Shown in pieces: positions 16,576-49,723 of a DNA stretch of 64,000 bases (position 1 is the first letter of the stretch; every line of letters begins with the position of its first letter). The DNA is taken from positions 54,891-118,890 of the forward strand of contig JAKLDJ010000001.1 of assembly GCA_022703585.1 (NCBI GenBank), given 5' to 3'. The position numbers and the translations under genes were made by a program. A model generated the notes under the pieces. It had not been told where the DNA came from and ran no database searches. It saw only the letters and a list, made by a program, of their open reading frames with translations. The stretch comes from Candidatus Omnitrophota bacterium (lineage in GTDB: Bacteria > Omnitrophota > Gorgyraeia > Zapsychrales > JAKLDJ01).

Positions 16576-16579
16576 ATTA

Positions 16580-18342: not shown

Positions 18343-18388
18343 GCAAAAAAGAGGGCGGCTCCCCCTTCCCAGGGGGAGCCGCCCTCTT
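18343..18388 (-). terminator. Strong rho-independent terminator after the 914-aa secreted protein gene
   Basis: 16-bp GC-rich stem agagggcggctccccc/gggggagccgccctct with T-tract on the minus strand. Confidence 0.65.
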
Positions 18389-18452
18389 TCCTGCACAGGC
18401 TGACAATCGAAAACAATTACTCCTCGTTGTTGCGCACAACCCTTCGTTCCCT

Positions 18453-21197
18453 CTAATAAGACGGTACCCTCCTCATGGGCTTCTTATCCTTTTTCTTCAT
18501 CTCCACACCTAGCCCAAGGGGCTTCTCAAAGATCCACTCGTCCACATCTTCCTGAATCGGCCTGTAAACATTTTTCAGTACCTTGGAATTAACCGCAGCT
18601 GACTTTTCCTGTGAAGCAGCCACCACGGGTATATTCGTTCCGTTAATAGCACCGACGATGAATTGGGCAAATATCGGACCTATCGTCCGGTTCGCAAGGC
18701 TGTTCGGATGCCCGTCCGCCGTTGTATGGGAAAGTTCGTATTCATACTTAATGTAATTAAAGTTTTGAGAGCCGGCATTGCTATCCGTGATATATCCCCT
18801 GAAATCAAAAACGGAGATATTGGCATGCGGCCCGTTTTCGGTTAAGAAATCCGTCTTCAGCCATTCTGAAAACTCCGTCGCTCTTGCGGCCTGGTCTGGA
18901 TAGCCTGTTAACCGATGCCGTGGCGGCAAGGTCCAGATGATAAATTTCTTAGCAGGGTATTGATCCATTAAATTCCTTAAGCCGCGGTACTGCGTCTTAT
19001 AATTCTCAAGAGACTGGACGCTGGAATTTATATTGGGGTTGCCCGTATCCGCGACGACGCCGGACGCCGGAAAACAATGCTTGAAGATGATGACGTCATA
19101 GTTTTGCGTCAAATCATCCAGACAAGGAGCCCCGTATCTGGAATCCCTGCATTTTTGATTACCCCATAAATCCCAATAGTGAAAAGGATAATTGACTCCG
19201 CCGTAAATACTGCCGCTGGCGGGGAACCATAAATCGGAAACCTGGTAGCCGGTACCGTTGGTCGAATTATAATTGCTAATCCACCCGGCAACTCCTCCTC
19301 CGCTATAATTGTAGAGATTCCCTCCTGTAGAATGATGCAAAAAGATTATTTTTTGATTACCAGCTGGTACAGGAGGCAAAACAAGGCCGTAATTTGCAAA
19401 GCAGGCTGCCCGGTCATTTTGATCCTTGCGCTGAGCCATTATGACAATATCCGTTAAATTGATACGTCCGTCATGGTTCAAGTCAAAGATGCCCGGAAAA
19501 TTAGTCTGCCCGTTCGCCGCTGAACTGTAGTAGTCCTGGATGCCTTTAAAAAGACCATTGCACCAGTCGACATTCAAATAGTTAGACTGGTCATAGGCAT
19601 TGGTAAACTGCGCCTGGCAAGTCGTGTCATCCCCTGCATTGTACATGGTCATCAGCAGAGAATTGTCTTGCGCATCCGCAATGTTATCGTTATTAATATC
19701 CGCGACGGCATTGTACTGCCCGGCGCTTAAAGCCGAATCAACAATTCCCGAGAGGGCGCTGCACCAAGGATTGAAGGACGCGGGAAGAGAGACTTCTTGC
19801 GGCGTTACAGCCTGGGCCTCGCTCGAATGAGCTGAAACGTTACCGGCGGCATCGTACGCCACCACGGTATAATAATAGGCCGTGTTCGCTGTAAGCTCCG
19901 TATTCTGATAAGTATTCGTATTGACATTAGCAATTTGGGCATACGGCCCTCCTGCCGTTACGCTCCGTAAAACATTATAGCCAACAACGCCCACATTATC
20001 CGTCGACGGGCTCCAGAAAAGATTGATTTGCGATGACGATACGGGGCTGGCGATAAGATTGGCCGGTGCCAAGGGAGCTATCGTATCCGCGGGAGGCGGA
20101 TTACCAGAACCTCCAAAGGTGACCGGAAAGCCCTGTTGGTTGGCCTGCTCATTCTCGTTAACAACGTAGAGATACTTCGGGGTGCCACTTGCCAGGGCCC
20201 CCTGCTTGACCATAATCTGAAGAGAATTATTATTCCATGCGCTGGGAATTTGCATCTCGCAATTGCCTCGCGCGTTCCACGCGGAACCCTCGCACACTTC
20301 CACCCGTGCCGCCGTGGTGTCGATATAAACATCGCTAACCCAGAAATTAGCCGGGCAACCGCTCGTCGTGCAGTTGTCCCGCGCATAATATCCGTTCAAA
20401 AAAACATTGGTCCACAGAGGTGCTGACGCCGTTCGGTTTTGGACCAAATCATTCATCTGGCTTGCCTTAAGCTCGCCGTCCAGCCAGCGATAATAATAGG
20501 CATTCGCAACACCTATCTCATCATTGGCCTTAAAGAAGTATTGGTAATGATGCCAAGCGCCCGGCATAAGAGCATAACCATTGGTATAGTTATTATGAAT
20601 GCTGCGATTGTCGTAATCTGCAAAATAACTATGCCCGCTACCGTTGATGGGATACATGTCATGCCGGAATTCTGCATAGTTACCAGGAACGCCCCAGTCT
20701 CCGGCCCCGCCCTGCCTGAGCGACATGAGCTTGAAATTCCGGCTTTTATCCTGGGCGGTCGGGTCAATCTCGGCATACATATGAAACGACACAAAATACT
20801 TTGTGCTGCCCGAAGGGTTATACAGCCCGAAATTACAATTGTACTGATTAGGGGTCGTATAATCCTGCTTGACAGAAACTAAACTTAGGCCTCTCGGCTT
20901 TTCATCAGAATAGAGCGGATAATCGCCCGCGCGCCTCTCGGTGTACCAGCCGTTACCGACTCTTTGACCGATAACGCCGCTCTCGAAACCATCCCACTTT
21001 AACGGTTCGGCCGGATTCTTTACCCCAAAACCGGAACCAGTGATGACAACGGAAGCATTCTGGACAAAAGATCCTGCCGCACTAGTGATTTGAGGAGCAG
21101 CAGTTTGGGCGTAGACACCCTGCTGAGGGAGAATGAATACCAAGGAAAGAATACTAAAAATAATAGCGGTATTAAACCATCGCTCCGTGGCTTTCAT
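18453..21197 (-). CDS. Large secreted protein (914 aa) with a fibronectin type III domain and dockerin-like Ca-binding repeats
   Basis: Signal peptide. FN3-like segment (PLAPANLIASPVSSSQINLFWSPS...YYYTVVAYDAAGNVS). Two D-x-N/D-x-D repeat pairs (DINNDNIADAQD, DLNHDGRINLTD). Large uncharacterised N- and C-terminal domains. Confidence 0.65.
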   Translation of the reverse strand: MKATERWFNTAIIFSILSLVFILPQQGVYAQTAAPQITSAAGSFVQNASVVITGSGFGVKNPAEPLKWDGFESGVIGQRVGNGWYTERRAGDYPLYSDEKPRGLSLVSVKQDYTTPNQYNCNFGLYNPSGSTKYFVSFHMYAEIDPTAQDKSRNFKLMSLRQGGAGDWGVPGNYAEFRHDMYPINGSGHSYFADYDNRSIHNNYTNGYALMPGAWHHYQYFFKANDEIGVANAYYYRWLDGELKASQMNDLVQNRTASAPLWTNVFLNGYYARDNCTTSGCPANFWVSDVYIDTTAARVEVCEGSAWNARGNCEMQIPSAWNNNSLQIMVKQGALASGTPKYLYVVNENEQANQQGFPVTFGGSGNPPPADTIAPLAPANLIASPVSSSQINLFWSPSTDNVGVVGYNVLRSVTAGGPYAQIANVNTNTYQNTELTANTAYYYTVVAYDAAGNVSAHSSEAQAVTPQEVSLPASFNPWCSALSGIVDSALSAGQYNAVADINNDNIADAQDNSLLMTMYNAGDDTTCQAQFTNAYDQSNYLNVDWCNGLFKGIQDYYSSAANGQTNFPGIFDLNHDGRINLTDIVIMAQRKDQNDRAACFANYGLVLPPVPAGNQKIIFLHHSTGGNLYNYSGGGVAGWISNYNSTNGTGYQVSDLWFPASGSIYGGVNYPFHYWDLWGNQKCRDSRYGAPCLDDLTQNYDVIIFKHCFPASGVVADTGNPNINSSVQSLENYKTQYRGLRNLMDQYPAKKFIIWTLPPRHRLTGYPDQAARATEFSEWLKTDFLTENGPHANISVFDFRGYITDSNAGSQNFNYIKYEYELSHTTADGHPNSLANRTIGPIFAQFIVGAINGTNIPVVAASQEKSAAVNSKVLKNVYRPIQEDVDEWIFEKPLGLGVEMKKKDKKPMRRVPSY

Positions 21198-21273
21198 AGT
21201 TATCTCCTTTCAATGCAATTACATGATGCCCATACAAATTTGCTTAACACCCGTCGCTCTCTTAGACGGTTGC

Positions 21274-24213
21274 TTAGCGTGACGGCAATGGATCATTATT
21301 TACCGTTGTTAACAATACCCGCGCATCCACAGCGGGCAAGATCAAATTCTGAATTGTTGCCCCGGAATTCGCCACATGATCCTGGACGCCATTGATCAAT
21401 CTAAATTCCTGGCCCAAATCAATGGTAGCCGGCGGCGTGCCGTAATAATTGTTATTCAAAATAACGATCCCGTGCTGAAAATCCCGCCGCCAGATATTCG
21501 GCTGCACCTGATAGGGCTCGCCTACCGGATCGCCGAGATAGCCCCTGCCGATACTGCCATTCGTGGTCGGAACCCCGGCCTGCCAGTCAACCCAGAACTC
21601 ATCATACCAGAGCATGTGCCTGTACCCGATAGCCCCGTCGGTAGGAGTAGGCATATGATAGACACCCCCTAGCAGGCTGGCAACCAAACCGTAGCGAGAA
21701 TAACGATAATTAGCCTGATTTGTGAGAAATATATTCCAGTTCATGTGTGGCGTTTTACTATGCATTTGCCAGTACAAAAAACTATTATCGTTGCTTGGAT
21801 TTAAGAACGTGTCTAAATTCCAAACACCATTACGATGAAGCATAGACTCCCACATCTTTCCGTTATAGAGACCGTGGTGCATATCTGCATTATTACCGAC
21901 GACTAAAACATCCTGCCCCAATTTAGCCCTCGTTAATTCCATTAATCTTTGCAGGCCGTTGCCCCACAGAGACCTGACCTCGGCAAAAACGCCAGAGTCA
22001 TTGAGATCTTCATCGACCCCGTCTAAATCATAATCCATAGGCTGGGTAAATGTATGATGGGCATAATCATATAAGAACCAGAAGGTGGTGTCCGGCCCAT
22101 CATAGCCAATACCATCCCAATCCCCTTTGGCAATCGCATTTTTTTCCAAGTGATCCGTCAATGCTTCCGAAAAGGGTACGGCGGGATTAAGGTTATAATT
22201 CAACTGATTCGGGTAATACAGGTTAATGGCGTATTCCCCCGCGACATTGTGCAAACGCCAGCTGTCTTGCAACTGTTCCGCCAAATCCGCACTCGCGATG
22301 TCGCTGACACCATAAAGCGTATTGGATAACGCATACTGGTACATCACCAATAAGATATTGGGATTGGCCTCCCTAATCTGACGCAAGACCAAAGACCGGT
22401 TAAGATTATTATTGCTCGGCAATACGTAGTCATACCGGGCAATATCGCTGGCTTCCGTCGGAGCTATGACGTTACCCGTGAAATATAAAGCAAGTTTCGG
22501 ATAATTATTATTGACCGGGGGCAAAACACGTAAACGACGATACCAAGCATAATCATCGCCATTGTCACTGGCTCGGCATTTGATATAAAAATCATAGGAA
22601 GGAATCGTACTCCCGACCGGCTGTTGGATCGTGTGCGTAAAGCCATCGCTCGTCCGGACCTTTCGGGGTAAATGCGCGTAGACATCGGCCTCGCTGCCAT
22701 AGGCACAATGCATCGAGGATTCCGTGGTAAAACTAAGCTCGATACTATCTGTGTTCGCAATCACATAGCCATCGGGTCTCGTGACATTTATCTTGGGCCT
22801 CTGGACCAAAGCCCCATCCTCAAAAACCCTCGCATTCCTAGTAACCGCCACCTCAAGAACATCCCCCGCACTCTTTGGGCCGGCATAATAGAGATCATTC
22901 GGAGAAAACGGAACCCCTCGGATATAGTTCTCCCTGATCTCCTCACTGCTGAGTGCCTTGTTCAGGATCCTGAATTCATCCACCACGGCATTCGCATTAC
23001 CGATGACCAGATTGCCGTTCGCCGGGGCAAAATTAAAATCGTTAAAATGATTCTGGGAGATCTTAAAACCGTTTAGATAAAGACTGGACTTGTTCTCAGT
23101 CTTGGAATACGTCATGGACAGCAGCATAGGTTTATTGATCGGCACATTGTTATGCATCGTATTGATCTGGACAGCACCCCCCCAGGTCGGATCCACAAAA
23201 CCTTTGTGAACCGTAAATAAAAGGATCCCTTCGGCCGTTTTGATATTCATCATAAACAATTCGCCGGTTACCGGGTTTCGATACCGAAATATGTAAGGAT
23301 CACCCGTATTGGCATCATAAACACTGCTGGTGAGAGGCTGTCTGAGAGTTAGCCAAAGTTCAACCGTCCCTTCATCAAAATCTAAATTATCGTTAACGGC
23401 ATACTGGGCCTTGCCGCTCATGCCCGTTCCAAATTTTCCCGGCTCAAAATTAATATTCTCCGCTGCCACCTCGCACTCGCCGTCAGCCGTGTTCAAATTG
23501 CCGTCAAAATGAGCCAAAAATGTGGTAGAGGTTGTACCCGATTCGACCGGAACGCCGTTTAACCTCCATTCATAAGGAACTCCTGCGGGCAGAAAAGTCT
23601 GCGCGAGCACGATTTTATCTTCATAGGGTTTCTGAAGCGCTAAGATGAGAGTAGACATGATACCGCCTGGAATCACGACAGGTTCTACCGTTGGTTCTAG
23701 GGGTAAATCGTCAACGGATCCAAGATTGAGAGACGTAAGATCGGGTGTTTCTTCGAATATGGGGTCGCCGGAGGGTATTGGTTCGGCATTAACAGTTATC
23801 GGTTCTGCATCGATAGGCGCTGGTTGGACATCAACAGGTATTGGGTCTATGTCGAGAAGAGGAGCAACGTACGGCTGGCTTATGCCGTCAGAATAATCTT
23901 TTGCATCACCCGTATAAATTTTTTCTTCCGCAGAAGAAACCAGATCATGGCTTTGGGAATTCGGCGATCCGGACGCAAAATTGCCTGCAAAAGAACCGTC
24001 CCGGCGAGCGCCGTTGACAAACCCATAGTTATAACTCCTGCGGAGAAACGATTCCGAAGACGATGATTTGTGTGACTTTAAATGACGCGACTTGACTAAT
24101 TCGGAGCCCCCATTCTGAGCAAAAGTATTATCTTGCAATACAGTCAAAATAAAGACGGCGGTGAGACCCAAACCGAAACGCAGAAAATGATGGAATGTAT
24201 AATATCTTTTCAT
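21274..24213 (-). CDS. Large secreted protein (979 aa) with a LamG/concanavalin-like domain and a C-terminal glycoside-hydrolase-like domain (family uncertain)
   Basis: Signal peptide. LamG-like block (GTVELWL...VDEFRILNKALSSEEI). Trp/Tyr/Asp-rich C-terminal region typical of carbohydrate-active TIM-barrel folds. RBS AGGAGGG. Confidence 0.65.
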   Translation of the reverse strand: MKRYYTFHHFLRFGLGLTAVFILTVLQDNTFAQNGGSELVKSRHLKSHKSSSSESFLRRSYNYGFVNGARRDGSFAGNFASGSPNSQSHDLVSSAEEKIYTGDAKDYSDGISQPYVAPLLDIDPIPVDVQPAPIDAEPITVNAEPIPSGDPIFEETPDLTSLNLGSVDDLPLEPTVEPVVIPGGIMSTLILALQKPYEDKIVLAQTFLPAGVPYEWRLNGVPVESGTTSTTFLAHFDGNLNTADGECEVAAENINFEPGKFGTGMSGKAQYAVNDNLDFDEGTVELWLTLRQPLTSSVYDANTGDPYIFRYRNPVTGELFMMNIKTAEGILLFTVHKGFVDPTWGGAVQINTMHNNVPINKPMLLSMTYSKTENKSSLYLNGFKISQNHFNDFNFAPANGNLVIGNANAVVDEFRILNKALSSEEIRENYIRGVPFSPNDLYYAGPKSAGDVLEVAVTRNARVFEDGALVQRPKINVTRPDGYVIANTDSIELSFTTESSMHCAYGSEADVYAHLPRKVRTSDGFTHTIQQPVGSTIPSYDFYIKCRASDNGDDYAWYRRLRVLPPVNNNYPKLALYFTGNVIAPTEASDIARYDYVLPSNNNLNRSLVLRQIREANPNILLVMYQYALSNTLYGVSDIASADLAEQLQDSWRLHNVAGEYAINLYYPNQLNYNLNPAVPFSEALTDHLEKNAIAKGDWDGIGYDGPDTTFWFLYDYAHHTFTQPMDYDLDGVDEDLNDSGVFAEVRSLWGNGLQRLMELTRAKLGQDVLVVGNNADMHHGLYNGKMWESMLHRNGVWNLDTFLNPSNDNSFLYWQMHSKTPHMNWNIFLTNQANYRYSRYGLVASLLGGVYHMPTPTDGAIGYRHMLWYDEFWVDWQAGVPTTNGSIGRGYLGDPVGEPYQVQPNIWRRDFQHGIVILNNNYYGTPPATIDLGQEFRLINGVQDHVANSGATIQNLILPAVDARVLLTTVNNDPLPSR

Positions 24214-24263
24214 GTCTTTACCCTCCTAAGAAATTGGGGAGGGCCTTTATTAAGAAAGGCCTA

Positions 24264-24390
24264 TTCCCGGTTACCAAATAAAAAGAGGAATAAGCCGTGA
24301 GCCATTTGTTATTTTGATTCGGCAGTCAGGCTATCCTCTTTTTTAAGGACCCTCTAACTTTGCGCACCGCCCTTACGGACAGATTGCCTT
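24264..24390 (-). promoter_or_regulatory. Candidate c-di-GMP-I (GEMM)-like riboswitch with intrinsic terminator, in the leader of the 979-aa gene
   Basis: Sense strand: aaggcaatctgtccGTAAgggcggtGCGCAAAGttag...ctgactgccgaatc, then terminator hairpin agaggatagcc...ggcttattcctct plus ttttatttgg. Closely parallels the 49342-49492 element (ggcaaactattcGTAAggataGGACGCAAAGC...ctggctgccgaatc). Confidence 0.5.
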
Positions 24391-24765
24391 TATCGTCAAA
24401 ACATGATTTCTTTAATTATCTATTTAAAAGTATAGCACTGATTTAGGGGGAAACAAGGCAGGGAGACATGCTACCGGGAAGCGTTTTCCTGGAGAGATCA
24501 TCTTTGAATATTTAACCTTCGATGACAAGCGTCAAGAGTCAAGATTACACCTGAAAACACAGAGCAATAAATTGAATTATTTTAAGTTACTGCTGGATAG
24601 ATAGCAAAGACCTCGCAATCGGGCTGAAAAAACAATCCGATCAATTCGGAACATCTGACCCCTATTACTGATAAAGATTCTCCGCTAACAACAAGGGAAC
24701 AGCCGGGAAGGTTACGGCAGGAAATTATTTTGTTCCTAAGGCTGACGCGAATGAATTCTGCGCCG

Positions 24766-37197: not shown

Positions 37198-38238
37198 CTA
37201 TCGGCTGGCATAACCGACAAAACCTTCCGCTAAACTGTCGGCTATCTTTTGTCGGTAGGAACTTGACTTTAACAGATCTCCTTCTTGCCTATTGGAAAGA
37301 AAACCAACCTCAACCAAGACCGCGGGGATAACGGTATTACGCAGCACCACATAACGCGCGGATTTGCTGCCGCGGTTTTTTGAATTAATCGCATCCGCCG
37401 TATTGCGGGTAATATATTCCGCCAGCCGGCTGCTCTCGGCCTGCTTGTAAGCAGCCATCATCGACGACACAATACCCTCAAGAGCCGAATCATTTTTCTG
37501 CATAGAAAAATGGTTAAAGGCCATTTTGTAATTTTTGTTCATCTCCACGTCATACGGGGAAACCTCATCAGCCCCTTTAAGATAATAGACCTCGAATCCG
37601 CTGGCACTCCTGGCCCGGCTGGCATTGGCGTGAATACTGATAAACAGATCCGCCCCCGACCGGGCAGCTATCCGGGGACGCTCTTCCAGAGAAAGAAAAG
37701 TATCGCCGTCCCGGGTCATAATAACTTTAATGCCTTTCCCTTCAAGTTCCTGCTTTAAGCGTTTAGCAATATCCAAAACAACTTCTTTTTCTTTTAATCC
37801 GTCCCGTCCGATAGCCCCGGGGTCCTGGCCGCCGTGGCCCGGGTCGATAACAACCGCACGGAATTTCTTGAGCGTGTAATCAAATTTTTGCGTCAAGCGG
37901 TCAATCACCTTGTGCTTAAAATCCGGCGGGACAAGAATCGTGCCCCGGTCCATCTTTAATGGAGCGCTTAATTTTATTTTTTCATCCCCCATGACAATAA
38001 GGTCGCTGCCGGCCATCGCCTTGGCCTTAAGACCCTGACGGGTCAACGTAACCACTTGACTCACGCTGTCCCATTCCCATTGAACGTCGTAGCGCTGGCA
38101 TAAGTCCTTAAGGACGGCTTCTTCGGGCGAGACAGAAATCGGGGCAGTGGCGCAGCCGTAAACCGATAGCGCTAAGATAATCAACAGCGCTATTTTTATT
38201 CTACCTTTCGGAAAATTTGATGGATTATAATTTCTCAT
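37198..38238 (-). CDS. N-acetylmuramoyl-L-alanine amidase (AmiC-like, N-terminal AMIN-type domain)
   Basis: Lipoprotein signal. VIDPGHGGQDPGAIG Amidase_3 motif. Confidence 0.8.
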   Translation of the reverse strand: MRNYNPSNFPKGRIKIALLIILALSVYGCATAPISVSPEEAVLKDLCQRYDVQWEWDSVSQVVTLTRQGLKAKAMAGSDLIVMGDEKIKLSAPLKMDRGTILVPPDFKHKVIDRLTQKFDYTLKKFRAVVIDPGHGGQDPGAIGRDGLKEKEVVLDIAKRLKQELEGKGIKVIMTRDGDTFLSLEERPRIAARSGADLFISIHANASRARSASGFEVYYLKGADEVSPYDVEMNKNYKMAFNHFSMQKNDSALEGIVSSMMAAYKQAESSRLAEYITRNTADAINSKNRGSKSARYVVLRNTVIPAVLVEVGFLSNRQEGDLLKSSSYRQKIADSLAEGFVGYASR

Positions 38239-40067
38239 TTTGCTGTAGAAGAACACCCCGACGCGCCGCCTACTTTCCCCTGGGAAAGACAGTTGACTAC
38301 CGACGTGTCCGCCTGGACATCTCCGGTCATAATTTCAGGGGTTAAAAAGATAACCAATTCCGTTTTCTTCACTTGCCTGTCTTTGTTGCGGAAGGCAAAA
38401 CCCAAAAGCGGCAAATCGCCCAAGAGCGGAACCTTGTTAATCGTTTCAACTTTTTCGTCTTTGATTAATCCGCCGATGACAATCGTAACGCCGTTTTTGA
38501 CCATCACCACCGTCTCGGCTTGCGAAGTTTCCACGATAGGAATCTTATTATTCTGACTGGTCGGGAGATAGCTGGTTACGGAACTGACCTCGGGCTTTAT
38601 CTTCATCGTGATAAAGTTGTCCTTGTGGATCGTCGGGGTAACGTATAGTTTTACCCCTACGTCGATAAAATTCACGCTTTCGGCAGTGGTCGCCGGCCCC
38701 GTCGCCGGTGTCGTGGTCGTGCTCGTAACATACGGCTCGGTGGAACCGACGAGAATTTTTGCCTCCTGATTGTTGATAGCGGTAATATGCGGACTGGCGA
38801 GAATATTGGTGACCCCGACAATATCCAACGCCTCCAACAAAACAGTATAGTCGTCCTGAGAGAGAGTGCCGATACTCAGCTTCCCTCTTTTGTCGCTGGT
38901 TCCCAGGATATTAAAATCACCGGTCAAATCCAGTTTGTGAAAATTATTAACAATAGCCTCCCAGTTAACCCCCATTTTATATTGGTCTTTTAAAACAATC
39001 TGTGCAATTTTTGCCTTGATCAAAACCTCTTCATGCCTGGTATCAAAAGCCTTAACGATATTTTCAATCTGCTCGAGCTTTTGGGGAGTATCGGTAACAA
39101 CGATTCTGTTGGAACGCACATCAAACTTGATGCTGCCGACATTCTTTGTCAACACCTCGGTTATTTTCTTGGAAAGGTCCTCGGCCTGAGAATAACTAAG
39201 CTCAAACATCTTGGTCTTTATCGGCACATCGATTTCTTTAACCAGCATTTCCATGGCCTCTATCTTCTCGGGAGTCTCCATCAAGACAACAGTATTTGAT
39301 TTATCATCGGCAATAACCTTACCGATAATACTTTTCATCTGGGTCAAAAGAAGCAAAACATCCGCCGCATTGGCGTTTTTAAGCTGGATGATTTTTATCT
39401 GGGTCTTTTCTCCGAATTTACGCCCATAGGTCAGCTCATAGTCCTTCCCTGTCATCACTTTTAGAATCCCACCTTCTTCTACATAGGCCATATTGTTTGA
39501 TTCCAGAATAATGCGCAGTGCGTCGCGGACATCCACATCTTTCAGGTAGATTGTAATTTTTCCCCGGATATCCTGCCCGGCTACGATATTAAGGCCGCTT
39601 TTCTTGGAGATTAATTTTAAAACATCCGCGATCTCCATATCCTTTAATTCCAGAACATCAATAATCGATTGAGGTTTTGACGGCCCCACCTGCGCCTGAT
39701 CAGAAGGCAGCAGGACATCCTGCGCCTGAGGCTGAGGTGCCGGGGCTTGGGTTTCCCCAACTTCTGCTGCGGCCTGCGGATACGGCACCGCCAGCATTTC
39801 TTCCTTTGCCGTTTCTACGACAACAGGGGCGGGAAGCATGGGTGCACCCGCATTCCGGTTAATGATTTTTCCTTCGGCAGGGCGCGGCATTTCTTCCGGA
39901 ATAGAATTTTGGCCTTCGGAAACAACACCCGGCTCCTGTTCCAGCGTATCCAGAGCTTGGTCAACGGTAGAACGGTATTCGTTGCCCTGCTGCGCACAGG
40001 ATTCATAACAAAAAGCCGTAACCGCCGCCAAAAAAATTCCCGCAAAAACAACTGTTCTTTTATTCAT
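38235..40067 (-). CDS. Type IV pilus / type II secretion secretin (PilQ/GspD family)
   Basis: N-terminal signal, secretin C-domain with VPLLGDLPLLGFAFR. TATAAT at 40104-40109 (minus sense) upstream. Confidence 0.8.
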   Translation of the reverse strand: MNKRTVVFAGIFLAAVTAFCYESCAQQGNEYRSTVDQALDTLEQEPGVVSEGQNSIPEEMPRPAEGKIINRNAGAPMLPAPVVVETAKEEMLAVPYPQAAAEVGETQAPAPQPQAQDVLLPSDQAQVGPSKPQSIIDVLELKDMEIADVLKLISKKSGLNIVAGQDIRGKITIYLKDVDVRDALRIILESNNMAYVEEGGILKVMTGKDYELTYGRKFGEKTQIKIIQLKNANAADVLLLLTQMKSIIGKVIADDKSNTVVLMETPEKIEAMEMLVKEIDVPIKTKMFELSYSQAEDLSKKITEVLTKNVGSIKFDVRSNRIVVTDTPQKLEQIENIVKAFDTRHEEVLIKAKIAQIVLKDQYKMGVNWEAIVNNFHKLDLTGDFNILGTSDKRGKLSIGTLSQDDYTVLLEALDIVGVTNILASPHITAINNQEAKILVGSTEPYVTSTTTTPATGPATTAESVNFIDVGVKLYVTPTIHKDNFITMKIKPEVSSVTSYLPTSQNNKIPIVETSQAETVVMVKNGVTIVIGGLIKDEKVETINKVPLLGDLPLLGFAFRNKDRQVKKTELVIFLTPEIMTGDVQADTSVVNCLSQGKVGGASGCSSTAK

Positions 40068-40236
40068 AACGCTTCCTCATAATTTTGAAAACCGTGAAAA
40101 CTATTATACCAGTTTTAAGGATGGATGACATCTTTTTGAACGCGCAAAAAAATCAGGATATCAAATCATTTATACAAACAAAAGGATGCCCCTGCCCTCT
40201 TTTACCCCGATAGAGAATGAAGTTCTCTAACGGGGT

Positions 40237-40854
40237 TTACTGCGTCAACTCGATCCTTTGCTCAGAAAAGTTAAGAATAACCTTGCTTTCCTGGATATCC
40301 TCGACAACAGCCTCACGGATACGATCCCCCTTATGCAGGAAAAATGTCCGCTGGGCATTGGCATCCTCGATAATAGCCTGGGAATTACTATCCAAGACAA
40401 TCCCCACCAGCCGTAAATTCTTCGTCAATTCAGAACCCGCCTCTGGGGCCTTGGCATCACCCATAGTCCTTTTATACACCGGAGACTGAAAGATGTCCCG
40501 TTTCGCAATCTGTTCGGAATAATAACTGTATGGTTTTGGATTTACCGATTCAGCTGACGGAATCGCAACCTCTTCCGTCGTCCCGGCCGGCTCCTTAAAA
40601 GATTTTAAACGATCGTCCGTAATAAATAAAAATTCATAGGCAACAAATCCCAGCAAAACAAAAACAGCGACTAAAAGCAACCGGTCGGCAATCTTAAATA
40701 AAATCCCCGATTCCTTCCCAGAATCCTGTCTCTGCGCCAAACCTTTCTGTTCCGGCGCACTTTGTTTCTTCCCGGCGAGGATTTTTCCCTGGGATTGGTC
40801 TTTCTTACGGATAAGACCCAGTAATTTTTCTTCCGGAGAGACCGGTTCAACCAT
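40237..40854 (-). CDS. PilP/GspC-like pilus assembly protein (membrane-anchored)
   Basis: N-terminal TM (LLLVAVFVLLGFVAYEFLF) plus C-terminal beta-domain LRLVGIVLD...ILNFSEQ. Assignment tentative. Confidence 0.4.
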   Translation of the reverse strand: MVEPVSPEEKLLGLIRKKDQSQGKILAGKKQSAPEQKGLAQRQDSGKESGILFKIADRLLLVAVFVLLGFVAYEFLFITDDRLKSFKEPAGTTEEVAIPSAESVNPKPYSYYSEQIAKRDIFQSPVYKRTMGDAKAPEAGSELTKNLRLVGIVLDSNSQAIIEDANAQRTFFLHKGDRIREAVVEDIQESKVILNFSEQRIELTQ

Positions 40855-40951
40855 CGATTAACACCCCGTAAAACTAGTTTTTGTAGTTACTTCTATCAAA
40901 ATCAGCGGGTGCTGCGCCCGACGAACTATTAATAATTTATGTGACAAGGCG

Positions 40952-41776
40952 CTAGCTCCATTTACCTTCTTCTTGAATAAGCGAACTGACTAAATCTCCG
41001 CTGACCATTTCCCGGTTTTCCATCACCAGCCGTTCCAGGCAATTATGGCAGATCAAAGCGATCTTGCGCGGATAGCCTTGGCTAAATTCATAGATCCTTT
41101 GCACCGCCTCCTGACTGAACAGGCTGCGGTCCCCGCCAAACCCGGCCTGTCGCAGACGAAAATCAATCATCTCTTTTGTCTCTTTTTCATCGAGAGGATT
41201 GATCATGTATTTCAAGCTCACCCGGTCCATAAAATTGCGGATTTTCTTGACCCTGGGCAAGAGTTCCATCTGCGACATAATAATCAGTTGCAGTAATTTA
41301 TATTCGTTGGTTTCATAGTTAAGCAAAGTCCTTAGCACCTCAAGAAGAGGCTGGCTGAGCTTTTGACCCTCATCAACAAGGAGTACAACCGTCTTTTTTT
41401 CTTCAACGCCTTTCTGGAAAAGATATTTTTCAATGGCCTCCCGATGATCCATCGCCGAGCGAAAGAACGGGCTGACACCGAAGATTTTTGTCAGAGAGGA
41501 TAAGAATTGGTACTCGGATTTAAAATCAGGATCCAGGACCATGTGGAATATAAAATTGTCCTCTTCCCCGCTAAAGGATTGAAGAAGAGCTCTGGACAAG
41601 GTAGTCTTGCCGGTCCCGACATCGCCCAAGACAAGGCACAAGCCTCGTCTTAAGCGTATAGAAATTTCCAGACGGCGTAAAACCGTCGTATGCTCGGGGG
41701 AATGATAAAAGAAAGTCGGGTCAGGGCTGGTAGAAAAAGGCTCTTTTTGAATATTGAGGACAGTGTAATAACTCAT
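40952..41776 (-). CDS. ExeA/GspA-like AAA+ ATPase
   Basis: Walker A GDVGTGKTTLSRALLQ, Walker B LLVDEGQ. ExeA-type architecture. Confidence 0.7.
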   Translation of the reverse strand: MSYYTVLNIQKEPFSTSPDPTFFYHSPEHTTVLRRLEISIRLRRGLCLVLGDVGTGKTTLSRALLQSFSGEEDNFIFHMVLDPDFKSEYQFLSSLTKIFGVSPFFRSAMDHREAIEKYLFQKGVEEKKTVVLLVDEGQKLSQPLLEVLRTLLNYETNEYKLLQLIIMSQMELLPRVKKIRNFMDRVSLKYMINPLDEKETKEMIDFRLRQAGFGGDRSLFSQEAVQRIYEFSQGYPRKIALICHNCLERLVMENREMVSGDLVSSLIQEEGKWS

Positions 41777-41813
41777 CGGCTTTACCGTCTCGTTAAAAAC
41801 CTTGTTGCTGAAG

Positions 41814-42044
41814 TCAACCTTGTCCGCCTAGCTGCCCAGCGACTTTTTTAAGCGAAAACCCTTGCAAGCGCATTTCCTTGATTCGATTGAGCGTCTGTAT
41901 AGTTGAATCATCAAAGTAACGGAAATTGGTCTCCGGTCCCCGGCCTATTTCTTTAAATAAGCCGAGCTTGAGGTAATATTTGAGCGTGTGTGTTGAGTAG
42001 CCGCTTACCCTGGATAGATCTTTCAGAAGGTATATATTTGTCAT
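41814..42044 (-). CDS. Small MerR-family HTH transcriptional regulator (76 aa)
   Basis: IYLLKDLSRVSGYSTHTLKYYLKLGL, the MerR-type HTH. Confidence 0.6.
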   Translation of the reverse strand: MTNIYLLKDLSRVSGYSTHTLKYYLKLGLFKEIGRGPETNFRYFDDSTIQTLNRIKEMRLQGFSLKKVAGQLGGQG

Positions 42045-42053
42045 AGGTTTATG

Positions 42054-42078
42054 GTTAACTCTCTACTTGGAGAGTTAA
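42054..42078 (-). promoter_or_regulatory. Perfect 9-bp inverted repeat (ttaactctc-N6-gagagttaa) immediately upstream of the MerR-like gene
   Basis: Located 11-34 bp before the ATG. Candidate autoregulatory operator. Confidence 0.3.
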
Positions 42079-42175
42079 TTAGATTCTCATACGCGTAAAC
42101 ATCATTGTCAAGGAAATTTTGGCAAAAAAATCCTAGGCTGCGTTGTAATTCTTTTTTTATAACAGGGAACGGCCT

Positions 42176-42712
42176 TTAGGAAGGAATGAGTATCTTGCTT
42201 AGGGTCAGGCGGCACTTAATTTGGGCCGTGCGTATAGAGCTTTTTTCGAAATAGACTTCGTCTATGCTAAAGAAATGGGGAGAATTTTGCAGGATATACA
42301 GAAAATGGACAATCGAAACCAGCTCGCCATCCATGGTCAGGCTCACCGAGAAATTATTATAGAAATCTACTCTTTTAACCTTTTTGGGTTTCATGTCGGC
42401 CACGCCCAGCTTGATTTCATTGGCAACCGACTGTATCTCGGAAAGGATCGATGCCATCTCCTGCTCATCAGAAAGTTTTTGCCGCAAAGAAAAAATCTGC
42501 TGTTCATATGCCTTGCTGACACTGTCCTTCCTCTTATTAATCTTCAAAATCTTCTTTAGCTGAGTCTCCTTGGCTTCGATTTTCTCTTCTAGGGCAGCCA
42601 AGTCTTCCTTAAGCGGCTTAAAAATAAACCGATAGCTGACAAAAACAAAGATAACAAACAGGCAAACAATAAAAATGCGCGTTTCTCTTTTGGAAAGGCG
42701 TCGTGGAATCAT
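42176..42712 (-). CDS. PilO/GspM-like pilus assembly protein
   Basis: N-terminal TM, coiled coil (LAALEEKIEAKETQLKKIL), C-terminal ferredoxin-like region. 4-bp overlap with upstream gene. Confidence 0.5.
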   Translation of the reverse strand: MIPRRLSKRETRIFIVCLFVIFVFVSYRFIFKPLKEDLAALEEKIEAKETQLKKILKINKRKDSVSKAYEQQIFSLRQKLSDEQEMASILSEIQSVANEIKLGVADMKPKKVKRVDFYNNFSVSLTMDGELVSIVHFLYILQNSPHFFSIDEVYFEKSSIRTAQIKCRLTLSKILIPS

Positions 42713-44223
42713 GGCGTTTCTTCCTTTGCCTTGACAAGATGACAGGTGATCTTAAAATCTGTCAGCTCGCCTTTAAAAATCTTCCTTTTAGTGGCATATT
42801 GCAAAGTTACGTTTCCAAACAGAGAAGAATTAACCAGCCGCCTCTGCAGGGCATTAACACCACTACCGGTTTCGGAGGTACCCTGAAGGTCAAGCGTTCC
42901 GTCTTCTCCCAGGTGCACCATGCTGAAAGAAATCTCCGCCGGTGCCAGATTATATAATTCATAAATAATATCAATACCGGTCGCAACGGGATTAAATCGT
43001 TCTTTGATAAAATTAAGACGCCTTACCTTTTCCTTTACCTCGCGGACAGCCGGCTCTGCCTCGCTGATTTTTCCCTGGAGTTGCTGAAGATACATGGAAT
43101 TCTTATAAATTTTAACCGCGATCGTACCCATGAACAGAAGAACGACTCCGACCAGAAGAATAATGAGCCTGGACCATTCCTGCCTTCTTTTCCTGTTTTC
43201 CCTGGTGCTGCTGACTTCTGAGGGAATCAGATTAACGAGGCCTTCGGGTTTTTCTAAGACCAGCCCCAGCCCCACCGCCAGCGACACACCGGCCTGCTCC
43301 AAGGCAATCGGTTTTTTAAAACTCTTTTTTTGCGGAATATTTGTTAGCGGGTTAAGTGTTTCGGGATTAACCGCATACAGACGCCGCCCTCTTTCGGCCT
43401 CGGTATTATCCCCGGACTCAGCGCCGGAAGCCAAAGCCTTATTCTCCGCTTCCATCCTTTCGCGTAAAATTGCGATCTGTGAGAGCGAAGAGACCAGAAG
43501 CCCCCGGGAAATATTTTCTCCGATATTTTCCTTAACGTAAGTAGCCACAGTGAGGTTGATCTCTTCGATGAGGTTGGCAATGCCTGCCTCGTTTAAATCC
43601 CTAGCCCCGAAATTAATACTCCGGGAAAATAATAGTTTTCGATTATGACAAAAACAAATTTCCGTATTCAGCGTATCAACATTGATAACCACGGCGGGAG
43701 AGGTATCTTTCTGCCTTAACCGCGACTGCTGAAAGACAAACCAACGCATCAACCCCACCGAACTTAAAGTCAGCCGTTGGATCGGCAGGCCGGCATCATT
43801 AAAGATCTTTAAATACCTGCCGACTACTTCCTTGTGGATCGCGAAGACCAGGACCTTGGAATAACCCGTCGATTCTTTGGCTAAAACGGCATGGTCGAGG
43901 ATAACGTCCTCCCGGGGATACGGCACCTGCTTGATAATCTGCAGGTTGATCATCTTTCTTATTTCTTCATCCGCATGAGAAGGAAGCGTCAGATGCCGGA
44001 GAATGGCAAAACGCCTGGGGATAATACCGATAAGATTTGAGGCGCGGACCTTGCCATTAGCAGCCATCACAGCGATCGTCCTAGAAACTTCAGCGTCGGA
44101 ATACTGCACAATTTCCCTAACGTCACAATAGGTCAAAACCGCGCCGCCGTGAGACACCATTGCCTGCACAAGCTTGATATGGGTATCCGTAATTTCAACG
44201 CTGGTTAAAAGATTTTTTCCCAT
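42709..44223 (-). CDS. Fused PilM (actin-like ATPase) - PilN pilus assembly protein
   Basis: N-terminal PilM-like ~350 aa, internal TM (LIILLVGVVLLFMGTIAV), C-terminal PilN-like segment. Confidence 0.7.
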   Translation of the reverse strand: MGKNLLTSVEITDTHIKLVQAMVSHGGAVLTYCDVREIVQYSDAEVSRTIAVMAANGKVRASNLIGIIPRRFAILRHLTLPSHADEEIRKMINLQIIKQVPYPREDVILDHAVLAKESTGYSKVLVFAIHKEVVGRYLKIFNDAGLPIQRLTLSSVGLMRWFVFQQSRLRQKDTSPAVVINVDTLNTEICFCHNRKLLFSRSINFGARDLNEAGIANLIEEINLTVATYVKENIGENISRGLLVSSLSQIAILRERMEAENKALASGAESGDNTEAERGRRLYAVNPETLNPLTNIPQKKSFKKPIALEQAGVSLAVGLGLVLEKPEGLVNLIPSEVSSTRENRKRRQEWSRLIILLVGVVLLFMGTIAVKIYKNSMYLQQLQGKISEAEPAVREVKEKVRRLNFIKERFNPVATGIDIIYELYNLAPAEISFSMVHLGEDGTLDLQGTSETGSGVNALQRRLVNSSLFGNVTLQYATKRKIFKGELTDFKITCHLVKAKEETP

Positions 44224-44227
44224 CAGT

Positions 44228-45304
44228 CTATTCTTTCTGCCAGAAAACTATTGATAAATCATTCCTGTCAATAACAGCTTCCAAGACAGAATCAATCCCC
44301 AGGCCCTCATCTTTACCTACCGCACGGACACGCAAATAATTGGAGACATCGGTTACACTACCTGACAATGAAAGGAATATCGCCATTTCTTTTTGATTAA
44401 GGCCTAATTCATTCGCGATAATCTTCCGGTCATCCGAGGTGTATTCTTGGCCGTCTTCTCCTCGCCGGTAAGAAATAATCTTAGCTGCCATGCTGTCGGC
44501 ATCGGACAACTCCGTGTTGGTCTGAAACCCTGCCTTACTGCGCGCCAATGCCCGGATAACAATTTCGGGAGCCGTATTCATATTAATCATCAATCGCGAA
44601 TCATCCTGAGGAAAAACCGTCACGTAATTCTTAACTTTTGAATATATCTCCGGAGTCATCCCCTTAAGCAAGAGAAGTTCCTCCGGACTTTCAAAAAAGA
44701 AATTCTTGCATCGATAAGAATACTCGGATTCTTCGGTCGCGGACGGCGCATTAGTCGCGGCGGCATCGCTATCCCGCCAGTCGACGGCGGCCATGGCGAT
44801 TGTTTCAGCCAGGACATCCTCAAACCCCAGAACAGAAATCAAAGAGCTCAAAACATTATAATTCTGCCGCGACAGGGCATTGATATTAATTCTGCCTTCT
44901 TCATCCCGCAGGCCGTAATGGGTTTTTTTTAGACCCGTCAGCGGGTCTTGAGTAACAAAGCTGACGTCAAAACGGCCATCGCCCAACCGGACTTCCTTAA
45001 AGATATCTTCCGGCACCTGCCCTTCCTCTAATGTGATACCACAAAGATACGCGGTGTCGAGGCCGGCCGCGGCACTATCCTCGCTGTCCTTTTTAATCTG
45101 GTCAATCGCGTACATCAAACCCGCCCAGGCAAGGTTTGAGGCCCTGGATTGGCCGACGGCAAATTTTGTCAAAGCCAAGTCAATACTGGTCCGCCGTCCC
45201 AGGCCGACCGCCAGAAAAGACAGAATAACCATCATCCATAATACAACCAGAAGTATTATACCAGAATCATTCCTCGTTCTAAATCTCGGTAAACAATATT
45301 TCAT
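44228..45304 (-). CDS. Minor pseudopilin GspK-like
   Basis: N-terminal SGIILLVVLWMMVILSFLAV hydrophobic segment typical of GspK. 358 aa. Confidence 0.6.
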   Translation of the reverse strand: MKYCLPRFRTRNDSGIILLVVLWMMVILSFLAVGLGRRTSIDLALTKFAVGQSRASNLAWAGLMYAIDQIKKDSEDSAAAGLDTAYLCGITLEEGQVPEDIFKEVRLGDGRFDVSFVTQDPLTGLKKTHYGLRDEEGRININALSRQNYNVLSSLISVLGFEDVLAETIAMAAVDWRDSDAAATNAPSATEESEYSYRCKNFFFESPEELLLLKGMTPEIYSKVKNYVTVFPQDDSRLMINMNTAPEIVIRALARSKAGFQTNTELSDADSMAAKIISYRRGEDGQEYTSDDRKIIANELGLNQKEMAIFLSLSGSVTDVSNYLRVRAVGKDEGLGIDSVLEAVIDRNDLSIVFWQKE

Positions 45305-45307
45305 ATC

Positions 45308-46030
45308 TTAAAGATTTTCTTCCGTTAGGTATCCTGACGGAATATAAACATCTTTAGTAAAAACGATAGGCTGCTTTACCTTGCCCGGTTTTATGAAGGT
45401 CGCTTTGATCCGCACCCCCGAAGGAGTGTACGGCTTTTCCCACGAATCCTTCCAGGTAATCTTCTCGTCTTCCTCCTGCCCTTCGAGGTAAGCAAAAGAA
45501 AAACTTAAACTCCCCTCTTGAATATGAGGGCTTAAAATATCCTTTTCGACTTTTGCCTGCGCATTATCGGTTAAGTAATCGGTAAACAGTTTTTCTTCGC
45601 GGACCAGTGAATACAAAACAAATTTTTCCTCGTAGCGAACGGTCAAGGAACGGTTTTTGTTCGTGTGGCCGCCGATAACAACTTTGTGCACCGTCGTCTG
45701 GTCGGGTAATTCAAGATAATAGCTGATAACCTTAAGGCCCGTATCCGTTGCGGATACGAAGGAAATTTTATCCGAATTTCCGGAGAATGCGGTTAGCTTA
45801 GGGTAAGAATTGGCAAAATTAAAAGCGCGCATGCGCTCTAAATCTCCCGCTATCTGATCCAGGGCCCAGCGAGCCTCGCGGTAAATGCCGTTGACATCAT
45901 CCGACCGGCGGCTTAATCGTAGCGCGCTATCCAACGTCCCATACAGGCTTACGGCAATGATAGAAAAAATGCTCAAACCCAGAAGCACTTCGATCAGCGT
46001 GAAGCCTTTAAAAGAATATTTTGATCGCAT
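45308..46030 (-). CDS. Minor pseudopilin GspJ-like (prepilin-type N-terminus)
   Basis: Likely start MRSKYSFKG|FTLIEVLLGLSIF, a class III signal with Gly-1 and Glu+5. Confidence 0.6.
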   Translation of the reverse strand: MRSKYSFKGFTLIEVLLGLSIFSIIAVSLYGTLDSALRLSRRSDDVNGIYREARWALDQIAGDLERMRAFNFANSYPKLTAFSGNSDKISFVSATDTGLKVISYYLELPDQTTVHKVVIGGHTNKNRSLTVRYEEKFVLYSLVREEKLFTDYLTDNAQAKVEKDILSPHIQEGSLSFSFAYLEGQEEDEKITWKDSWEKPYTPSGVRIKATFIKPGKVKQPIVFTKDVYIPSGYLTEENL

Positions 46031-46074
46031 ACGTATTTCTTTCCAGGACGGTTTGCCGTTTTTCGACCACATTT

Positions 46075-46485
46075 CTATGCCGGCGGCTGAAGAAGATAGG
46101 TCACCGCAGAAATAGACCGCTCCTTGGGGCCCGAACGCCAAAAGACAGTCAATTTAACCTCATTCAACAATCCTGACGTCGATTCGCTAACGACTTTCTT
46201 TGTTTCCAATCGATAGAAAAACTTTTCATACGGCTCGGGAAAAATATCCTCTATATCAATAGAATCTTTGATAAAACCTTTTTGTCTTAAATCGGACATT
46301 TCATTTCCTAATAAAATCACGGCCATGGAGTAATCGGCGCTATACGCCGTCGCCTTCAGGCTGGACACCAGGGAGCGGATAACAACCGTCAACCCGATCG
46401 AAAGGATAGAAATCGTCAGCAAGGCCTCGACTAAAAGCGAGCCTTTTTTACTCAATTTTGCCTTCAAATATTTGAACATAGCCAA
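46075..46485 (-). CDS. Minor pseudopilin GspI-like
   Basis: KKGSLLVEALLTISILSIGL prepilin-type N-terminus. Confidence 0.6.
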   Translation of the reverse strand: MAMFKYLKAKLSKKGSLLVEALLTISILSIGLTVVIRSLVSSLKATAYSADYSMAVILLGNEMSDLRQKGFIKDSIDIEDIFPEPYEKFFYRLETKKVVSESTSGLLNEVKLTVFWRSGPKERSISAVTYLLQPPA

Positions 46486-47529: not shown

Positions 47530-47566
47530 TGACTGACCTCCTTAAAAGTTATTAGAATTCCCAATC

Positions 47567-48826: not shown

Positions 48827-48970
48827 ACCCCCGAACCTATTTCAAGGCAAAGCTACGGATGATGCATGAGAATAGAGTTAAAACAATGATTTGCGTAAGA
48901 ATAACTTTGGGTGATTTTAAGAAGAGGCCTCGAGGGACATTCAAATCATACCACTGGAGGGAAATTGTTT

Positions 48971-49324: not shown

Positions 49325-49341
49325 ATCTTCCTCCGCTCAAT

Positions 49342-49694: not shown

Positions 49695-49723
49695 TATTTA
49701 GCTTTATTGAAAAATCCCCTAAC

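Follow-up and report, generated by a model that had tools for sequence, protein, structure and literature searches.

What two adjacent genes for exported proteins do, and what controls them, is the question raised by a 64,000-nucleotide stretch of DNA from Candidatus Omnitrophota bacterium (contig JAKLDJ010000001.1, positions 54,891 to 118,890; hereafter the window, in whose numbering all positions are given, with (-) marking its reverse strand). The two genes, ORF-A (979 amino acids (aa); 21274..24213 (-)) and ORF-B (914 aa; 18453..21197 (-)), which were taken from an open reading frame (ORF) list and its translations, follow a riboswitch for cyclic di-GMP (c-di-GMP), and a locus for a type II secretion system (T2SS), with a sister riboswitch of its own, lies 25 kb away. 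A preliminary description of this region had regarded the two products as giant secreted carbohydrate-binding or adhesin-like proteins that are gated by c-di-GMP in coordination with the secretion machinery. Our analyses confirm the observation underlying that description and partly support its interpretation. The reading that we favor, and which we consider probable if well short of certain, is that of one riboswitch-controlled transcription unit in which a c-di-GMP ON switch stands over two exported carbohydrate-active enzymes.

In the mechanism that we propose, a leader terminator would form in the absence of ligand and transcription would stop in the leader; with c-di-GMP bound, the aptamer would keep one strand of its helix P1b, the terminator would be blocked, and the polymerase would then read ORF-A, a 76-nt spacer and ORF-B up to a terminator at 18343-18394. 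Both products would be Sec-exported, multidomain carbohydrate-active enzymes, ORF-A with a LamG-type binding module and a GHL15 hydrolase, and ORF-B with a lyase-like domain, an FN3 spacer, calcium-loop modules and an esterase-like domain. The pair would jointly attach to an extracellular polysaccharide, probably a substituted or anionic one, remove its esters and cut it, and their activity would be timed to high c-di-GMP, viz. to the surface- or cell-attached state.

Layout and leader of the two-gene unit

The preliminary description had placed two co-directional genes of 979 and 914 codons downstream of the riboswitch, and the ORF coordinates proved exact. ORF-A and ORF-B lie on the same strand, each behind a good Shine-Dalgarno sequence, and are separated by a spacer of 76 nt (21198..21273 (-)), the 3' end of which is the Shine-Dalgarno sequence AAAGGAGA. 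The sole hairpin of the spacer has 5 bp and is not followed by a T run, so that no convincing terminator is present in it, and our consensus promoter scan found no passing promoter between the genes. Downstream of ORF-B, the strong terminator that had been noted earlier is a long inverted repeat with 24-nt arms (18343-18366 and 18371-18394; whole element 18343..18394 (-)) that is followed by a T run and folds with an energy of -51.9 kcal/mol, and a terminator-like hairpin at 24636-24650 sets the unit apart from an upstream TPR gene. Co-transcription of ORF-A and ORF-B, as deduced from this layout, is plausible, because the genes are co-directional, their 76-nt spacer holds neither a terminator nor a scan-passing promoter, and a strong terminator follows ORF-B. 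The earlier suggestion that both genes are under the riboswitch holds to this extent, viz. the arrangement fits a probable bicistronic operon, the co-transcription itself being a deduction from it. A candidate start of the transcript, seen by eye, is the promoter-like site TTGTTT-N16-TGcTATACT with an extended -10 element (24429..24456 (-)), ~30 nt upstream of the aptamer; the consensus scan passed over this site, whose -35 hexamer matches at 3 of 6 positions, and the sister riboswitch is preceded by the near-identical sequence TTGTTT-N16-TATATT at 49533-49560.

The aptamer of this unit (riboswitch 2; 24317..24398 (-)) was identified with the Rfam model RF01051 of c-di-GMP-I riboswitches, which it matches at 24318-24398 (-) with 55.4 bits against a gathering score of 35. 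In a small-window search it also scored 56.1 bits, under the cut-off of 59, on RF03167 (c-di-GMP-I-GGC). In the cmscan alignments, the ligand-site columns of riboswitch 2 and of the sister aptamer (riboswitch 1) both read G, A and C, where G is the unpaired base before the GC of helix P1a, A is the first unpaired base after CGC, and C ends the unpaired GC before the closing helix; we take these columns to correspond to G20, A47 and C92 of Vc2. Both aptamers read CGCAAAG and hence have A where the RF03167 consensus CGCGAA (model position 37) has its characteristic G, the meaning of the designation "GGC" being read here from the model consensus. A search pattern common to the two aptamers, which itself requires A at the variant position, retrieved 31 metagenome loci, and all 13 of the relatives tested from this group passed the RF03167 gathering threshold despite this A. 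It appears from these sequences that Rfam may assign c-di-GMP-I aptamers of this lineage to the RF03167 variant even when their binding site is canonical. Since the canonical A is kept, and since 13/13 relatives are called RF03167 in spite of it, we expect the RF03167 label to reflect similarity of lineage and the ligand of both window aptamers to be c-di-GMP. Cyclic AMP-GMP or a variant ligand was also considered and was judged unlikely from the bases of the binding site; the base that we equate with G20 is G in these aptamers, unlike the A of c-AMP-GMP-type variants.

Folding of growing transcripts indicates an expression platform that overlaps the aptamer. The leader terminator (24276..24344 (-)) has as its 5' arm AAAAAAGAGGAUAGCCUG, which in the aptamer makes up the loop of helix P1b together with the 3' strand of that helix, and as its 3' arm CACGGCUUAUUCCUCUUUUU, followed by AUUU; once CACGGCUUAUUCCUCUUUUU-AUUU has been transcribed, the terminator pairing is the minimum-energy fold. 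The terminator state has an energy of -40.4 kcal/mol versus -30.9 kcal/mol when the aptamer is enforced, a difference of 9.5 kcal/mol, and the terminator fold of this single sequence hence competes with the aptamer. Riboswitch 2 is accordingly modeled as an ON switch, at which c-di-GMP would permit read-through, because the 5' arm of the terminator is part of the aptamer and an aptamer held by its ligand would block the terminator. Mutation of the terminator arm GGCUUAUUCCUC would be expected to make this leader constitutive.

The two exported proteins and their relatives

The signal peptides that had been ascribed to both proteins can be recognized by eye as of the Sec type, that of ORF-A ending in ...TFA and that of ORF-B in ...VYA, each followed by Q. 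In ORF-A the signal peptide is succeeded by a disordered linker of ~155 aa, a LamG jelly roll, a beta-sandwich, a GHL15 (beta/alpha)8 barrel and a C-terminal beta-sandwich. A Pfam search of both proteins bears out the earlier calls of LamG, TIM-barrel and FN3 domains. The LamG/concanavalin-like domain (residues 274-426; 22936..23394 (-)) matches Laminin_G_3 at E 6.7e-8 (33.3 bits against a cut-off of 27.6), the TIM-barrel (residues 615-915; 21469..22371 (-)) matches GHL15 (PF14885) at E 9.9e-15 (55.6 bits against a cut-off of 27) over profile positions 2-270 of 271, and the FN3 domain of ORF-B (residues 377-457; 19827..20069 (-)) matches fn3 at E 1.3e-7, with PDB sequence matches that include the FN3 domain of chitinase A1.

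An AlphaFold2 model of ORF-A, based on an alignment of 19 relatives, has mean predicted local distance difference test (pLDDT) values, taken over blocks of 10 residues, of mostly 70-94 for residues 190-979 and below 50 for residues 1-188. The best PDB matches of this model by Foldseek are the GH168 endo-fucanases 9nhf, 8rg3, 9f9v and 9joc (E 2e-14 to 6e-11; TM-score on target 0.57-0.68; identity 13-16%), and its jelly-roll part was matched to one half, likewise a jelly roll, of the binding domains of clostridial neurotoxins. ORF-A and the GH168 enzymes have in common a (beta/alpha)8 barrel with an attached beta-sheet subdomain; ORF-A differs in that it is a GHL15 protein by Pfam, with extra LamG and beta-sandwich domains and a D-x-D-x-D-G loop. 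Catalysis in GH168 involves an Asp on strand 4 and a Glu on strand 6 (PMC12534559). In ORF-A, the residues D705, N774 and E789 are invariant across the 19 relatives, with D705 ending a strand in the model, and they could be candidate equivalents of the GH168 catalytic pair at the level of the fold.

ORF-B consists, after its signal peptide, of a lyase-like jelly roll, an FN3 domain, two EF-hand/dockerin-like modules, an SGNH-fold domain and a basic C-terminal tail. Its N-terminal domain (residues 31-362; 20112..21107 (-)), which was delimited by family search, has a short IPT/TIG-like start followed by a polysaccharide-lyase-like jelly roll and a beta-sandwich; this domain, the SGNH-fold domain at the other end of the protein and the leader terminator of the riboswitch were all absent from the preliminary description. 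At E<=1e-3 the N-terminal family comprises 2763 cluster representatives, of which many are free-standing proteins of ~350 aa, and a scan of 40 members gave matches to TIG in 10, to Polysacc_lyase (PF14099) in 5 (best 1.7e-6) and to PL14 (PF21294) in 5. The family profile has a weak match in the PDB to alginate lyase 6kcw (E 0.013), and the lyase-like assignment rests on sequence, the AlphaFold2 model of ORF-B being one of the C-terminal region only. A separate observation on this family comes from locus L014 (4662-12417), in which six genes (365-523 aa) stand in tandem, the ORF-B-type lyase-like domain being present in at least four and a match to Cu-binding_MopE in two of the six as well; judged from its sequences, this array is a local paralogue expansion of the family.

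Dockerin repeats had been described for this pair of proteins as two pairs, a claim that did not withstand closer inspection. Dockerin_1 (PF00404) matches ORF-B in one stretch, residues 562-589, at E 0.0016 and with 19 bits, which is under the cut-off of 22.9, whereas a type I dockerin has two adjacent calcium-binding segments of 22 residues, and the region concerned (residues ~478-600; 19398..19766 (-)) consists by eye of two duplicated, cysteine-flanked modules of ~60 aa, each with one D-x-N-x-D motif that resembles a calcium loop. Protein P0135 has this dockerin-like region in common with ORF-B (38% identity over 115 aa).

The C-terminal esterase-like domain of ORF-B (residues ~612-860; 18618..19364 (-)) was recognized with AlphaFold2 (mean pLDDT 76.5) and Foldseek, which matched it to acetyl xylan esterase 7ddy (E 2.5e-5; TM-score on target 0.62) and further to PbeAcXE 7toh, GDSL esterases, PatB and the sialate O-acetylesterase 6njc. 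It resembles the SGNH/GDSL carbohydrate esterases in its fold, in an invariant Ser after strand 1 and in an Asp/His pair before the last helix, and it differs from them in that block I reads HHSTG and not GDS, in that it has no Pfam match and in that its family is uncharacterized. This family comprises at least 569 relatives, none with a Pfam family that covers the domain and often with a type IX secretion system sorting tail, and two motifs are invariant in it, HSTG behind strand 1 and D-x-H ahead of the last helix; S623, D828 and H830 of ORF-B are candidates for a catalytic triad in the modeled fold. In P0145 (L015, 8001-9443), a protein from a metagenome, an SGNH-like domain of this type is fused to Glyco_hydro_114, a fusion that, at the level of sequence, links the domain independently to polysaccharide hydrolases of the GH114/GHL type. 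The domain content of the two proteins, viz. a hydrolase in one and a lyase-like plus an esterase-like domain in the other, leads us to reject their earlier description as adhesin-like or matrix proteins; from their modeled domains they look like enzymes and not adhesins, and at 979 and 914 aa they are not giant.

Copies of ORF-A that are 100% identical occur on 19 contigs. Beyond these the protein is rare, with only 19 relatives among 5.8 billion clustered proteins and none above 57% identity. Matches in genomes are found in Patescibacteria, in three metagenome-assembled genomes labeled as uncultured Gammaproteobacteria, in Woesearchaeota and in Nanoarchaeum. At two places the ORF-A homologue has directly upstream of it a gene with the N-terminal domain of ORF-B, viz. 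a 1961-aa gene with two such domains in L007 and a 1265-aa gene in L016/L017; in these pairs the gene order is opposite to that of the window and there is no riboswitch, nor was a riboswitch present upstream of ORF-A or ORF-B relatives at any of 13 loci examined. We suspect that L004 and L007, which carry the gammaproteobacterial label, are contigs of Patescibacteria type with a label that looks wrong, because they have a tRNA at a similar distance downstream of the ORF-A homologue, and with an identical Rfam score, as do L006 and L016/L017, and because L007 also agrees with L016/L017 in the lengths of the neighboring ORFs, which in L016/L017 are annotated as H+-pyrophosphatase (H+-PPase) and NusA. 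The third record with this label is L012, and the case for relabeling covers L004 and L007 only.

The pairing of a lyase-like with an ORF-A-like protein is, judging from these sequences, conserved across phyla, and its retention in the opposite gene order and without a riboswitch supports a functional two-gene cassette that would have been acquired horizontally and placed under a resident riboswitch. The lyase-like/LamG-GHL15 cassette would be an inherited one that this bacterium has in common with Patescibacteria, with the hydrolase alone also occurring in DPANN archaea. The GC content of the cassette is slightly raised (0.475-0.495 versus ~0.43-0.45 in the flanks), and a search for signs of a genomic island (tRNA-end repeats and long direct repeats) found no boundaries enclosing the region from 18 to 24 kb.

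Several duplications were observed in the surroundings of the cassette. Two tandem tRNA-Pro(TGG) genes lie at 27050-27521 along with a third, partial copy (27050-27087) that covers the 3' end of the tRNA and flanking sequence, a duplicated tRNA-His leader lies at 16568-16792, and copies of a hairpin element of 30 nt precede tRNA-His and tRNA-Arg (16614, 16699 and 18124); these elements may be remnants of integration or duplication. Two DUF748/YhdP-like genes on opposite strands flank the cassette region (16844-18010 (-) and 27655-30516 (+)).

The secretion locus and its sister riboswitch

The T2SS locus (38235..51424 (-)) was recognized from Pfam matches to T2SSE, T2SSF, T2SSG, N_methyl, T2SSK, PilM/PilN/T2SSL, PilO/T2SSM and Secretin, and holds the core genes together in one place, viz. 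gspE, gspF, gspG, minor pseudopilins, gspK, PilM/N/GspL-like and PilO/GspM-like genes, an ExeA-like ATPase, a GspB/C-like gene and a secretin gene (38235-40067 (-)). No prepilin peptidase was found among the window ORFs scanned with Pfam. The sister aptamer (riboswitch 1; 49398..49489 (-)), a member of the same Rfam clan as riboswitch 2, lies between gspE (49724-51424 (-)) and gspF (47567-48826 (-)) and matches RF03167 with 60.5 bits against the cut-off of 59, but with A at the diagnostic G position of the variant. The preliminary description had put the secretion machinery under this sister riboswitch. Both the locus and the aptamer are real; gspE, however, is upstream of the aptamer and has its own terminator (-39.7 kcal/mol), and it is consequently outside the unit of riboswitch 1.

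The expression platform of riboswitch 1 is of another kind. Its terminator (49342..49380 (-), from folding; arms CCUAUCC and GGAUAGG) is apart from the aptamer, and the terminator arms repeat the P1a stem, so that the hairpins can swap partners. The complementarity between P1a and the terminator extends over 15 nt, which none of 300 shuffles reached, and the aptamer-plus-terminator state (-52.1 kcal/mol) and the antiterminator state (-50.3 kcal/mol) are nearly iso-energetic. A corresponding complementarity, here of 13 nt and attained by 0-4 of 300 shuffles, is seen again in related leaders whose P1a differs in sequence, and it is absent from riboswitch 2. Since it is the antiterminator and not the terminator that competes with the aptamer, riboswitch 1 is predicted to be an OFF switch for gspF and the genes after it. 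If both predicted polarities are true, the enzyme operon and the genes from gspF onward respond oppositely to c-di-GMP.

Two further observations concern this locus. The listed ORF at 48946-49359 starts inside the terminator of riboswitch 1, and an ATG near 49327, after GGAGGA, is its likelier start. The N-terminal domain of GspE is an MshEN domain (Pfam E 1.6e-18), a type of domain that binds c-di-GMP in some ATPases of T2SS and type IV pili; in GspE both copies of the motif are without the leading Arg (FLGQLL... and MLGITLL...), which makes c-di-GMP binding by this domain uncertain. If the domain does bind c-di-GMP, the T2SS would sense the messenger at two levels.

The genes downstream of the related aptamers in metagenomes encode a prepilin peptidase at 5 loci, PilM at 2 loci and one pseudopilin-like protein. 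Two more are truncated by the end of their contig after >1,290 aa, one for a GLUG-repeat protein and one for a protein that contains RCC1, and the others encode an FN3 protein, a protein that combines CBM9 with a chondroitinase-B-like part, and a small, proline-rich secreted protein that recurs. From these sequences, the lineage of riboswitches to which both window aptamers belong would appear generally to control parts of pili and T2SS and secreted proteins, and such targets fit the long-known gene associations of the c-di-GMP-I class (PMC7266159). The small secreted family was noted in its own right, as the first ORF after the aptamer at eight loci (L018, L022, L027, L028, L035, L042, L044 and L047). 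Its members have the core SRWAYNP.DTRGQGNMG...APYGHDKD...LYGN.GRVI and a proline-rich tail of PEPTP type in common, and the complete ones have 187-270 aa and mostly end in PPDYPPF; the two members scanned (L022 and L027) have no meaningful Pfam match. All eight stand behind the same aptamer subtype, and P1a-terminator complementarity is present in seven, L028 having been left unscored separately because its aptamer is identical to that of L018.

These results bear directly on the view that c-di-GMP co-induces the T2SS and its cargo, with ORF-A and ORF-B as large surface, matrix or adhesin proteins exported by that system. In its favor, the aptamers of the two loci are close relatives and have promoter-like sites that resemble each other, the T2SS locus is complete and both proteins have Sec-type signal peptides; related aptamers precede pilus/T2SS genes as well as genes for large secreted proteins, and T2SS loci of Omnitrophota have been tied to carbohydrate-active, dockerin-bearing proteins (bioRxiv 10.1101/2023.11.21.568195). 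On the other hand, the two platforms differ in such a way that high c-di-GMP would increase expression of the enzymes and decrease that of the genes from gspF onward, gspE is not part of the riboswitch 1 unit, the domain content of the proteins is enzymatic rather than adhesin-like, and nothing ties ORF-A and ORF-B to this T2SS specifically. We judge this view unlikely as a whole. A simple co-induction of the enzyme operon with the T2SS is doubtful, because ON is predicted for the enzymes and OFF for gspF onward, and the coordinated gating of the preliminary description gives way to a control that is possibly reciprocal.

Alternative readings, precedents and significance

An enzyme pair under an ON switch might also process the exopolysaccharide of the cell itself, in the manner of PelA, PslG and BcsZ, and be made together with the matrix at high c-di-GMP. 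The predicted polarity of riboswitch 2 agrees with such a role, as does the fusion of the SGNH-like domain to a GH114-family domain in P0145, and the pairing of a hydrolase with an esterase-like domain recalls the hydrolase/deacetylase of PelA type. Against it, no polysaccharide synthase, polymerase or exporter was found among the ~50 window ORFs scanned with Pfam, the relatives of the cassette in Patescibacteria-type contigs adjoin housekeeping genes (H+-PPase and NusA), and ORF-A relatives are carried by DPANN archaea, which to our knowledge use neither c-di-GMP nor these matrix systems. We give this role a low probability and consider a foreign glycan, on the surface of a host, prey or particle, to be the most likely target rather than the cell's own matrix.

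A bolder possibility, to which we attach only a slight likelihood, is that the enzymes form a "cell-surface glycan breaching kit" that has passed horizontally among microbes of ultra-small size that depend on hosts (Patescibacteria, DPANN archaea and this Omnitrophota bacterium). In Omnitrophota, the enzymes would be under c-di-GMP ON control and the T2SS/pseudopilus operon under OFF control, and the messenger would switch the cell back and forth between a state of searching or piliation and one of attachment in which it digests the host.

Least probable of all, in our estimate, is that the riboswitch is decorative, that it serves ORF-A only with ORF-B having its own promoter, or that the aptamer senses another ligand: the small-window search gave the RF03167 variant as its top Rfam model, a promoter-like match is present in the 3' part of ORF-A and TGTAAT in the spacer could by eye be a weak -10 element, but the diagnostic variant base is missing, with A as in canonical c-di-GMP-I aptamers, the overlap of the terminator with the aptamer argues for a working switch, and the promoter-like matches in the cassette region (20) are little above the shuffled mean of 11.9 (sd 3.1).

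The reading that we prefer, viz. a c-di-GMP ON switch over two exported carbohydrate-active enzymes, has a number of points to its disadvantage. Every step of it is predicted from sequence, folding and models, and no GGDEF, EAL or HD-GYP gene was found among the same ~50 window ORFs. The predicted ON polarity comes from the thermodynamic folding of one sequence, and there is no orthologous leader for covariation, since no ORF-A relative exceeds 57% identity. With its large internal loop and a base rich in A and U, the leader terminator is not of the textbook type, and in the fold of the full-length leader a hairpin CCCUCC...GGAGGG (24214-24262 (-)) covers the ribosome-binding site of ORF-A; this hairpin, which competes partly with an adjacent GGCCUUU/AAAGGCC hairpin, may provide a second, translational layer of control. 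The match TTGCCA-17-TATCAT inside ORF-A (21655-21683), which came from the consensus scan, may be a weak internal promoter for ORF-B. As to the proteins, ORF-B itself matches no lyase or esterase Pfam model, its N-terminal domain having no match at E<=0.01, and SGNH blocks II and III are divergent or unrecognizable in it while block V reads D-x-H, not D-x-x-H. The likeness of ORF-A to GH168 is structural only; phmmer and the family profile found no GH168 chain in the PDB, and the sequence and profile searches of ORF-A against it returned FN3 domains or noise only.

The arrangement has precedents, and its designation in the preliminary description as not described as such was overstated. In Vibrio cholerae, the Vc1 c-di-GMP-I riboswitch lies upstream of gbpA, which c-di-GMP regulates positively (PMC4744006). 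The two cases are alike in that a gene whose exported product binds carbohydrate has a class I aptamer in its 5' leader; they differ in that GbpA is a single chitin-binding colonization factor of a gammaproteobacterium, whereas the window holds a two-enzyme operon whose polarity is predicted. In Clostridioides difficile, c-di-GMP riboswitches of opposite sign raise surface proteins and type IV pili and lower the ZmpI protease and flagella (PMC6200980). The likeness to the window is in several c-di-GMP riboswitches per genome that have opposite signs, by prediction in the window, and that act on surface or secreted proteins and pili; in C. difficile, however, most class I riboswitches are OFF switches and ON switches are mostly of class II, whereas both window aptamers are of class I, and the targets in the window are glycan-active enzymes and a T2SS, with a secretin and hence presumably an outer membrane. 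For Omnitrophota, dockerin-like and carbohydrate-degrading secreted proteins near T2SS-like loci have been proposed to act on the surfaces of prey or host, in a study that mentions neither riboswitches nor c-di-GMP (bioRxiv 10.1101/2023.11.21.568195). The giant proteins of that study have at least 30,000 aa and are membrane-anchored, unlike the present ones, which have <1,000 aa and whose genes are preceded by a riboswitch and lie at a distance of 25 kb from the T2SS. The control of secreted or surface proteins and pili by c-di-GMP riboswitches is thus already established, and the gain from our results is incremental in this respect.

The Omnitrophota are uncultured, largely ultra-small cells that are possibly predatory or parasitic. 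We know of nothing on how they regulate their attachment functions. c-di-GMP does not appear in the phylum-wide survey of the group, and the unit described here, together with the sister riboswitch, is apparently the first concrete c-di-GMP riboswitch regulon to be sketched for Omnitrophota within the literature that we searched. The main value of these results is in two enzyme families, in the fact that ultra-small lineages have them in common and in the predicted ON/OFF pair of riboswitches. Both families are uncharacterized, the LamG-GHL15 hydrolase being rare and found in Patescibacteria-type genomes, DPANN archaea and this Omnitrophota bacterium only, and the SGNH-like domain being widespread and without a Pfam family. 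If the opposite signs of the two riboswitches are true, they would offer a simple model of how one messenger may order a secretion machinery and secreted enzymes in time.

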